Below the pieces are notes generated by a model. The model did not search any database and was not told the DNA's origin. It saw nothing but the letters and a program-made list of their open reading frames with translations. Shown one piece after another: positions 3,397 to 3,995 of a stretch of 4,222 bases of DNA (the stretch's first letter is position 1; each line of letters starts with the position of its first letter). The position numbers and the translations under genes are program-made. Origin of the DNA: a virus (taxonomy: Duplodnaviria; Heunggongvirae; Uroviricota; Caudoviricetes); IMG/VR virus record IMGVR_UViG_2711768020_000009; one strand, given 5' to 3'.

Positions 3397-3430
3397 TCCT
3401 TATGGACTTTGTTGTTTTAGTCCATAAGGA
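3397..3430. repeat. Perfect 12-bp inverted repeat TCCTTATGGACT-(10 nt)-AGTCCATAAGGA overlapping the stop codon of the minus-strand ORF
   Basis: Read directly: arm 3397-3408 is the reverse complement of arm 3419-3430, with loop TTGTTGTTTT. It lies exactly at the boundary between the GC-richer segment and the AT-rich module. Could be an mRNA 3' stabilising hairpin, a protein-binding site or a recombination scar. Confidence 0.7.
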
Positions 3431-3735
3431 CATATTTGCAGAGTGCAACGGTTATTAAAGCATTCATTCAATACGTTATCTGTATTTGTAGGGCATTCCT
3501 GGCTATTTTTGATTGAATTCCAGAATGTTTTATTGAATGGTACTACGTTGTAAATGGTTACAGGTAGCACTTTGTTATTGAGCATGATGCCTGTGTGAGT
3601 CAGTGTAAATATACTTTCAGGAGGTAAGAAAGCATCCGATTGATACCAGATTATTAATTTTATTTTACTCCATATGACTGAAAAAGATATTCCGCATGAT
3701 GGCTGGATAACTGTATCAATCACAATCCACTTCAT
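3400..3735 (-). CDS. Hypothetical protein (111 aa) in an AT-rich module, transcribed opposite to the phage late genes; function unknown
   Basis: ATG (complement of 3733-3735) is preceded on the minus strand by AAGGAA (complement of 3741-3746) at 5-nt spacing, a good Shine-Dalgarno. A sigma70-like promoter lies ~40-70 nt upstream on the same strand. Stop TAA is the complement of 3400-3402. Asn/Ile/Lys-rich with several Cys. No family recognised. Confidence 0.5.
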
Positions 3736-3775
3736 TTAGTTTCCTTGTTTATGCCTTGCTGGTGATGTTCTGAAA

Positions 3776-3802
3776 AGTATAAATGATATTTTTGAATGTA
3801 AA
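3776..3802 (-). promoter_or_regulatory. Candidate sigma70 promoter for the minus-strand 111-aa ORF (-35 TTTACA, 15-bp spacer, -10 TATACT)
   Basis: On the minus strand: TTTACA (complement of 3797-3802), 15-nt spacer, TATACT (complement of 3776-3781, 5/6 match to TATAAT). The spacer is at the short end of the allowed range. AT-rich DNA generates such matches easily, so this is a weak call that is made more plausible by the downstream SD and ORF. Confidence 0.3.
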
Positions 3803-3995
3803 CCATAGAGCAGAATTATTTTTCTGATGTTGTTTATTGTTTATTTAAATGCAGGGTGGTTTATATCTCGTCTTGTAGTTTATCCATGCATATCTGCTTG
3901 ATAATCAGGTTTTTATTTAAGGTATGGTTTTGTGTTTTTTCTGTATTACATGTCAGGTATTTTAAAGAATTATTTTTCAGATGGTGGAAAGAACC

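Follow-up and report, generated by a model that had tools for sequence, protein, structure and literature searches.

The AT-rich block at positions 3366-3992 of the window, by which we mean the whole stretch of 4,222 nucleotides analyzed here, is best explained as the iraL cassette of a lambdoid prophage of the CFT073 potB type, present as a Shigella allele, and we hold this explanation of the whole with high confidence. An anonymous AT-rich module thereby becomes a gene with a known function, and the NCBI pipeline already annotates it in over 1400 complete E. coli genomes. [quoted passage not shown] 2014, mBio, PMC4045071). The window represents the late-regulatory part of a lambdoid prophage, in which iraL lies between STnc100 and a DUF1737 gene (Table 1). 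An earlier note, made from the sequence alone, had described an AT-rich module with an antisense gene and its own promoter; that reading was sound, and two of its details are corrected here, its inverted repeat being a hairpin and its left edge lying at 3366.

Table 1. Features of the window, in order of position, with strand and supporting evidence
Feature	Position	Strand	Evidence or remark
RusA-type resolvase, start	626 onward, then masked	+	
Q-type antiterminator	1317-2171	+	Pfam Antiterm, E = 7e-55
tRNA, 3' part	to ~2488, end of masked block	+	
Unnamed phage ORF	2599-2952	+	phrog_2873
Small DUF3927/TciB-like ORF	2988-3119	+	
STnc100 prophage sRNA gene	3185-3374	+	Rfam RF02076, 132.4 bits versus gathering threshold 47, E = 5e-30
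STnc100 terminator stem-loop	3344-3365	+	Terminator scan; sRNA convergent with iraL
iraL moron module, AT-rich, ~627 bp	3366-3992	.	Change point and homology breaks
Perfect 12-bp hairpin, 10-nt loop	3397-3430	-	Last iraL codons (PYGLKQQSP) and stop codon
iraL coding sequence, 111 aa and stop, ATG start	3400-3735	-	RssB anti-adaptor, IraM/IraL family
Shine-Dalgarno sequence AAGGAA	3741-3746	-	Read from sequence; 5 nt before ATG
iraL transcription start	3768	-	Equivalent of CFT073 5'-RACE site
-10 hexamer TATACT	3776-3781	-	7 nt upstream of start 3768
-35-like hexamer TTTACA, assignment uncertain	3797-3802	-	Read from sequence
PhoP-box-like direct repeat TGTTTA-TTGTT-TATTTA	3831-3847	+	11/12 match; reversed relative to iraL; -63 to -79
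DUF1737 gene, 5' part, cut by IS600	3996-4122	+	Pfam PF08410, E = 1.5e-15
IS600 copy, end	4123-4222	.	97-100% identity to IS600 transposase regions in many genomes and plasmids

The minus-strand gene is iraL

The 111-aa minus-strand ORF that the earlier note had singled out, and for which it had proposed a homology search, is present, is conserved and is iraL. Its product matches the NCBIfam model NF007393, "anti-adapter protein IraM", over residues 1-110 with 162 bits against a cut-off of 121, and it matches phrog_4407 with E = 3e-72; all of its database relatives carry the name IraM. Because a Pfam scan of the window protein returned no family at E <= 0.01, we used for the family call the NCBIfam match together with a match to chain A of PDB entry 8TWD (IraM; E = 6e-31, residues 1-78 aligned to 4-81). 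PF11183 (PmrD) is listed on all of the IraL relatives in precomputed tables, and the window protein is predicted to have a PmrD-like N-terminal domain as in the IraM-RssB crystal structure, where the PmrD-like fold makes its contact via Pro66. This proline is invariant in the IraL/IraM alignment, and K-12 IraM (YcgW), with the same domain and the same proline, is a paralogue that is 61% identical to window IraL over the full length.

The match to CFT073 is much closer. The two IraL proteins are identical at 110 of 111 residues, and the DNA of window positions 3150-4125 agrees with that of the CFT073 potB prophage at 970 of 976 positions (99.4%). The 2014 study called a gene iraL when it was at least 95% identical to CFT073 iraL (PMC4045071), and the window gene lies above this threshold while also carrying the mapped start site and the promoter. 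The neighborhood is shared as well. In CFT073, in strain 042 and in phage vB_EcoS-640R1 the order is Q, tRNAs, DUF3927, STnc100, iraL (on the minus strand), DUF1737, holin and lysis genes; the CFT073 potB prophage reads DUF968, RusA, Q, tRNAs, DUF3927, iraL (again minus), DUF1737, holin and lysis genes, and the integration site of this iraL prophage adjoins potC/potB.

[quoted passage not shown] By its family membership, IraL occupying RssB would stop the delivery of RpoS to ClpXP. For the window allele, RssB binding and RpoS stabilization would carry over from the nearly identical CFT073 protein.

The published start site and promoter are present in the window

The claim that the module has its own promoter and is expressed in the lysogen finds support in published experiments. 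The 5' RACE product of CFT073 iraL from log-phase cells starts with ACATCACCAGCAAGGCATAAACAAGGAAACCA (PMC4045071), and 31 of 32 positions of this sequence are identical to the window's minus strand read from 3768, which places a mapped start upstream of the ATG at 3735 on that strand and defines a 5' UTR of 33 nt. The start in CFT073 is of the sigma-70 type, a fragment from -100 to +33 complements an iraL deletion by restoring RpoS stability, and cells growing exponentially under ordinary conditions transcribe iraL from the repressed prophage (PMC4045071).

The earlier note had also pointed to a good Shine-Dalgarno sequence and to a pair of -35/-10-like hexamers. The AAGGAA motif is indeed there, inside the 5' UTR that RACE delimits. 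Of the promoter pair, the -10 hexamer holds, being correctly placed for the mapped start, and it is kept as TATACT in the relatives with 88%, 69% and 65% identity (we name the relatives of iraL by such percentages) and as TATGAT in the 75% relative. The -35 assignment, on the other hand, is weak, given a spacer of just 15 nt; the same short spacer is why the TTTACA/TATACT pair is absent from the output of a generic promoter scan.

These data bear on an alternative that makes the earlier note's H-NS suggestion the dominant control: H-NS would cover the cassette as AT-rich foreign DNA and keep it mostly silent in the lysogen, so that iraL would be expressed only when silencing is relieved. The composition of the promoter region invites this idea, as the GC content of the 224 bp preceding the start site is only 27.7%, but iraL was discovered through raised RpoS in unstressed log-phase cells in LB, its start was mapped in cells of this kind, and a fragment as short as -100 to +33 suffices for complementation (PMC4045071). 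Expression in ordinary log phase makes full silencing by H-NS unlikely. Partial modulation by H-NS may occur; the published temperature response, in which iraL mRNA is higher by 1.6 log2 units at 37 C than at 23 C, would be compatible with a role of H-NS, and the title of PMC3347191 links the paralogue iraM with H-NS.

The window allele is intact beside a truncated neighbor

The window shares with CFT073 the gene, the prophage neighborhood, the mapped 5' end and the -10 hexamer; it differs by the substitution L74S, by a single base each at -1 and within the 5' UTR, and by an IS600 copy that lies 387 bp upstream of iraL in the neighboring gene. This neighbor encodes DUF1737, which in other prophages is the N-terminal domain of nanS-type esterases. 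Its alignment with intact alleles stops at about 4122, and the match to IS600 begins at about 4117-4123 and runs to 4222; an IS600 copy at this place likewise agrees with a Shigella origin. An E. albertii locus and an E. coli locus with 99% IraL are 97.6% and 99.2% identical to the window, respectively, with IS600 placed differently.

One could suppose from the insertion, and from a serine at a position that is leucine in both CFT073 IraL and K-12 IraM, that the window copy has lost its function and is decaying within a degraded Shigella prophage. We consider this very improbable. The ORF is intact, and the promoter, the -10 hexamer, the Shine-Dalgarno sequence and the start site are all preserved in the window allele. 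The exact protein is found on about 1000 contigs under Shigella sonnei and multispecies Shigella names, which is unlike a sporadic defect, and the S. sonnei deletion lowers log-phase RpoS, though the allele of that strain may differ from the window's (PMC4045071).

The module occupies one fixed junction

The earlier note had reported by eye an abrupt shift in base composition at about 3400. The step itself is real: the GC content is 32.1% at 3366-3992 and 32.2% at 3397-3980, compared to 47.3% in the rest of the window, and the module differs from its immediate flanks with a chi-square p of 3e-11. Its position was some 31 bp too far to the right, however, as a two-segment likelihood analysis over 2953-3735 put the change point at 3366 (50.8% GC before and 34.1% after). 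This left edge of composition is also the foot of the STnc100 terminator stem.

Comparison with related prophages gives the same boundaries. In prophages without iraL, homology to the window ends after 3365 and restarts at about 3993; the prophages of CDC#03-98 and 14EC017 instead carry an unrelated filler of about 225 bp between the STnc100 terminator and the start codon of DUF1737/nanS, so the presence/absence comparison that the earlier note had proposed shows the block missing at one fixed junction. On the right, the 88% relative has the same junction as the window, and the 75% relative parts from the window at the downstream gene's ribosome site, which puts the right edge at about 3976-3992. 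Among 5426 complete E. coli genomes, 1446 carry the module at 90% identity or more, in one to three copies, and 3501 carry its flanks.

Presence or absence at a single junction, a base composition unlike that of its surroundings and a promoter of its own that works in the lysogen fit a moron, as had been proposed: iraL is an accessory gene that is missing from some related prophages. With a real compositional step, a conserved ORF and a mapped start, none of the outcomes that the earlier note had named as refuting its reading holds. The moron concept is said to go back to Juhala and Hendrix in 2000, and lambda bor and lom and the stx genes of Stx phages are reportedly among its examples. Like the classical lambdoid morons, iraL is an extra gene of deviant composition with its own promoter, inserted between conserved phage genes; like them, it occurs in some relatives only, is expressed from the prophage and benefits the host. 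Unlike them, it has no dedicated terminator that we could identify, and, unlike stx, which is co-directional with the late operon, it is transcribed against it.

The inverted repeat forms a local hairpin

A perfect 12-bp inverted repeat over the stop codon had been noticed in the sequence, and it is indeed perfect: its arms, TCCTTATGGACT (3397-3408) and AGTCCATAAGGA (3419-3430), are 100% complementary, and the stop codon TAA, at 3400-3402 in plus-strand coordinates, lies inside it. Only 0.23% of 3000 dinucleotide shuffles of positions 2437-4222 contained a perfect 12-bp repeat of this kind. It does not bound the module, as had been thought, nor does it fall exactly on the boundary of composition and homology. 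Both arms are located at the 3' end of iraL and are separated by 10 nt, so that the repeat makes a local hairpin where a boundary pair would need one arm at each edge; the boundary at 3366 lies 31 bp outside it.

Reading the block as a transposon- or MITE-like mobile cassette, with this repeat as a recombination or transposition end, draws on the rarity of the repeat and on its closeness to one block edge but is hardly credible, since the arms lie within or overlap the coding sequence on that one side, no repeat at the left edge has a partner at the right, a repeat search found no flanking target duplication, homology breaks outside the repeat, the repeat is degenerate at the same junction in the 88% and 75% relatives, and all 1608 places at which the module was found are annotated as the same gene, all but one of them chromosomal.

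In the iraL mRNA, the 5' arm of the hairpin consists of the conserved PYGL codons and the 3' arm consists of the S and P codons, the stop codon and the three bases that follow; the RNA stem has a predicted free energy of -17.5 kcal/mol. We compared the region of the stop codon in seven family members. Only the group with 97-100% iraL has the full stem, with two exceptions: an A-to-G change that still allows G-U pairing and the loss of one end pair. In the 88% and 75% relatives, 8-9 of the 12 pairs persist; the differences are a synonymous TAT-to-TAC change and substitutions past the stop codon, and none of them is compensated. At this place, the folds of iraM, the Citrobacter homologue and the 69% and 65% relatives are unremarkable (z from -0.6 to -1.9). 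We also considered the hairpin as a conserved RNA element of the whole family and rejected this, as its pairs decay without compensation in the 88% and 75% relatives. We read the hairpin instead as a clade-specific 3' stem-loop that may stabilize the end of the mRNA or pause the polymerase.

As a separate observation, a MAFFT alignment contained a 9-mer, CTTATGGAC, that is common to the left arm of the repeat and to 'empty-site' alleles; by rough arithmetic, about 0.6 matches of this sort are expected by chance, and it is therefore left uninterpreted.

iraL converges on STnc100 and probably on late transcription

A terminator scan of 3100-4222 found no terminator-like site on the minus strand. 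On the iraL mRNA, the hairpin is followed by GUUUAC and has no U-run. The nearest strong structure in the direction of iraL is the STnc100 terminator read backwards (3365-3344), which is followed by GGAGAG and lacks a U-tract on that side. Probably one or both of these structures, the 12-bp hairpin and the STnc100 terminator in reverse, end or protect the iraL transcript. K-12 iraM differs in this respect: it adjoins icd/e14 and ycgX and has an intrinsic terminator of its own, whereas none is predicted for iraL.

The tail-to-tail arrangement with STnc100 is common to the 88%, 75% and 72% relatives, and the distance from the 3' end of iraL to the 3' end of STnc100 is 10-36 nt in four sequence types (99, 88, 75 and 72%). 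Since the scan showed no terminator for iraL itself and its 3' end is so near to STnc100, its transcripts would end in the terminator of the sRNA or read through it in antisense.

Judging from gene order and synteny, Q-dependent late transcription likely crosses the cassette against the direction of iraL. In Stx phages, late transcripts from pR' extend through stx as far as the lysis genes, and the antisense relation is therefore secure there. In the window, IS600 has entered the downstream gene, so the prophage may be defective and the antisense relation to late transcription perhaps only historical.

These arrangements suggest a coupling that we put forward tentatively and regard as rather doubtful, in which iraL and the STnc100/late unit form a conserved convergent pair that ties RpoS stabilization to the lysogenic state. 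After induction, Q-modified polymerase that has passed the STnc100 terminator would collide head-on with iraL transcription and switch iraL off. Together with the PhoP-box-like repeat, such convergence would make iraL a switch gated by host signals and by the state of the phage, and not a constitutive gene.

A PhoP-box-like repeat lies upstream of the promoter

Using the consensus (T/G)GTTTA-N5-(T/G)GTTTA, we found that the direct repeat at 3831-3847 is the only match in the window with at most one mismatch; 23 of 200 shuffles also contain one, a chance of about 0.1 for the whole window. What lifts the site above noise is that its position is kept across diverged promoters. At the same offset from the ATG, the box is perfect in the 75% relative, matches at 11 of 12 positions in phage 1717 and matches at 10 of 12 positions in the 65% and 69% relatives; in the 88% relative it is deleted. 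Its reversed orientation and its distance upstream of the start site also speak against a role. [quoted passage not shown] Control of iraL by PhoP through this repeat, as for iraM, may operate, and the conserved position of the repeat suggests that iraL may not be purely constitutive.

Other published inputs are less readily placed on the sequence. Expression of iraL is raised in a fur mutant, for which the source paper proposes an indirect effect, and by eye the only Fur half-site-like sequence, TGATAATCA at 3899-3907, is far upstream of iraL.

The cargo slot and its relatives in Stx phages

The location of iraL was called a "genomic island" in PMC4045071. It is actually the variable cargo slot of lambdoid late operons, and in Stx2 phages this slot directly follows the stx2 genes. 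The IraL-like genes of Stx2c phages and of some Stx2a phages (1717, 2851 and the Stx2c_* records) are family members with 71-75% identity that, like iraL, are antisense, occupy the slot between STnc100 and nanS-p and have a PhoP-box-like repeat at the same position. They differ from iraL in that they lie directly downstream of stx2AB, are of a distinct type and are often unannotated. The 75% relative and the relatives with 71-73% identity (1717, 2851 and some Stx2a phages) are found between stx2B/STnc100 and nanS-p, the 88% relative is found between DUF3927/STnc100 and nanS, and the 65% relative in E. albertii is found between Q/ORF6N and DUF3927. All of the phage members listed are antisense to the late genes.

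By the survey in PMC4045071, which counted genes at 95% identity or more, iraL is rare in STEC; by that threshold the Stx2c-phage gene would be missed. A literature search found no study of these IraL-like genes. Under the rather doubtful coupling put forward above, the paralogue beside stx2 would act in STEC as proposed for iraL, that is, as a gene whose expression is gated by convergence with late transcription and by the PhoP-box-like repeat. The placement of iraL in the cargo slot, the Stx2c paralogue and the PhoP-box-like repeat go beyond the literature that we searched; the advance is modest, and all three may be useful to work on RpoS control or on Stx phages.

[quoted passage not shown] The IraM/IraL family appears to be restricted to Escherichia/Shigella and their close neighbors, among them Citrobacter, whose homologue of 54% identity is chromosomal and close to phoP.

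STnc100 borders the iraL module

A full-length gene for the prophage small RNA STnc100 lies directly to the left of the iraL module and is convergent with iraL, and the module's left edge is exactly the STnc100 terminator stem (3344-3365). The same tail-to-tail arrangement is found in the iraL-family relatives at 88%, 75% and 72% identity. On the other side of the gene, the iraL upstream region contains two direct-repeat copies of 21 nt each, AGAATTATTTTTCTGATGTTG and AGAATTATTTTTCAGATGGTG, which match at 19 of 21 positions and are 154 bp apart; the 88% and 75% relatives retain the copy proximal to iraL.

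In some prophages STnc100 is present twice in tandem upstream of the same junction, the two copies having diverged to ~77% identity. Separately, several genomes have a RefSeq pseudogene, labelled 'incomplete hypothetical protein', within STnc100; it is probably an annotation artefact over the RNA gene.

Coordinates of features in the window and in comparison loci (L-numbers, own coordinates); offsets are counted from the iraL start site at 3768 (-)
Feature	Location	Strand	Details
117-aa ORF	window 2599-2952	+	phrog_2873, E = 4e-70 (family annotated unknown function)
43-aa DUF3927 ORF	window 2988-3119	+	phrog_1470 match
STnc100 sRNA gene	window 3185-3374	+	RF02076, 132 bits
Direct-repeat copies	window 3812-3832; 3966-3986		about -44 to -64; -198 to -218
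IS600 end	window ~4122-4222		interrupts DUF1737 gene
Tandem STnc100 copies	L003 ~1500-2200; L007 4362-5019; L001 4254-5030
RefSeq pseudogene inside STnc100	L004 4055-4180; L006 33269-33394; L002 1549-1674	-
Citrobacter IraM homologue and phoP neighbourhood	L012 4001-4330 and 6476-7150
IraL-like gene of Stx phages	L021 4501-4824 (phage 1717); L014 3001-3336		41 phage records

Relatives of iraL in Stx phages and at iraM loci

A distinct IraL-like gene, with 71-75% identity, is present in Stx2c-converting and some Stx2a-converting phages, where it lies antisense between stx2B/STnc100 and nanS-p. Most deposits leave it unannotated, and our literature search found no published study of it. The 2014 survey reported that iraL is under-represented in STEC (Hryckowian et al., PMC4045071), but its criterion of at least 95% identity means that it would have missed this gene.

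In K-12 MG1655 (1207000-1217000), RefSeq ends the cryptic prophage e14 at 1211412 and places iraM, the iraL paralogue, at 1211680-1212003, past icdC. By this annotation, and contrary to the wording of PMC4045071, iraM adjoins e14 and is not on it; a search near K-12 iraM found no STnc100. A Citrobacter IraM homologue (54%) lies outside any prophage, near purB and ~2 kb from phoP, an interesting link because iraM is under PhoP control.

Other features of the window

The 117-aa ORF has no Pfam or NCBIfam family, and CFT073 and strain 042 have no annotated gene in the matching interval between the tRNAs and DUF3927. Since GC is also lower (38-41%) across 2437-2952, this stretch may be a second cargo block. 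The family matched by the DUF3927 ORF, of category moron, is described as 'TciB-like inhibition of cell division or resistance to colicin'.

N runs at 734-1304 and 2216-2436 hide most of the RusA gene, the Q start and 2.5 tRNA genes, and ORFs called across them are artefacts. At the right end, IS600 breaks the DUF1737 gene after ~42 codons, so the 62-aa ORF at 3981-4169 is artificial; the insertion suggests a Shigella-type prophage, possibly a defective one.
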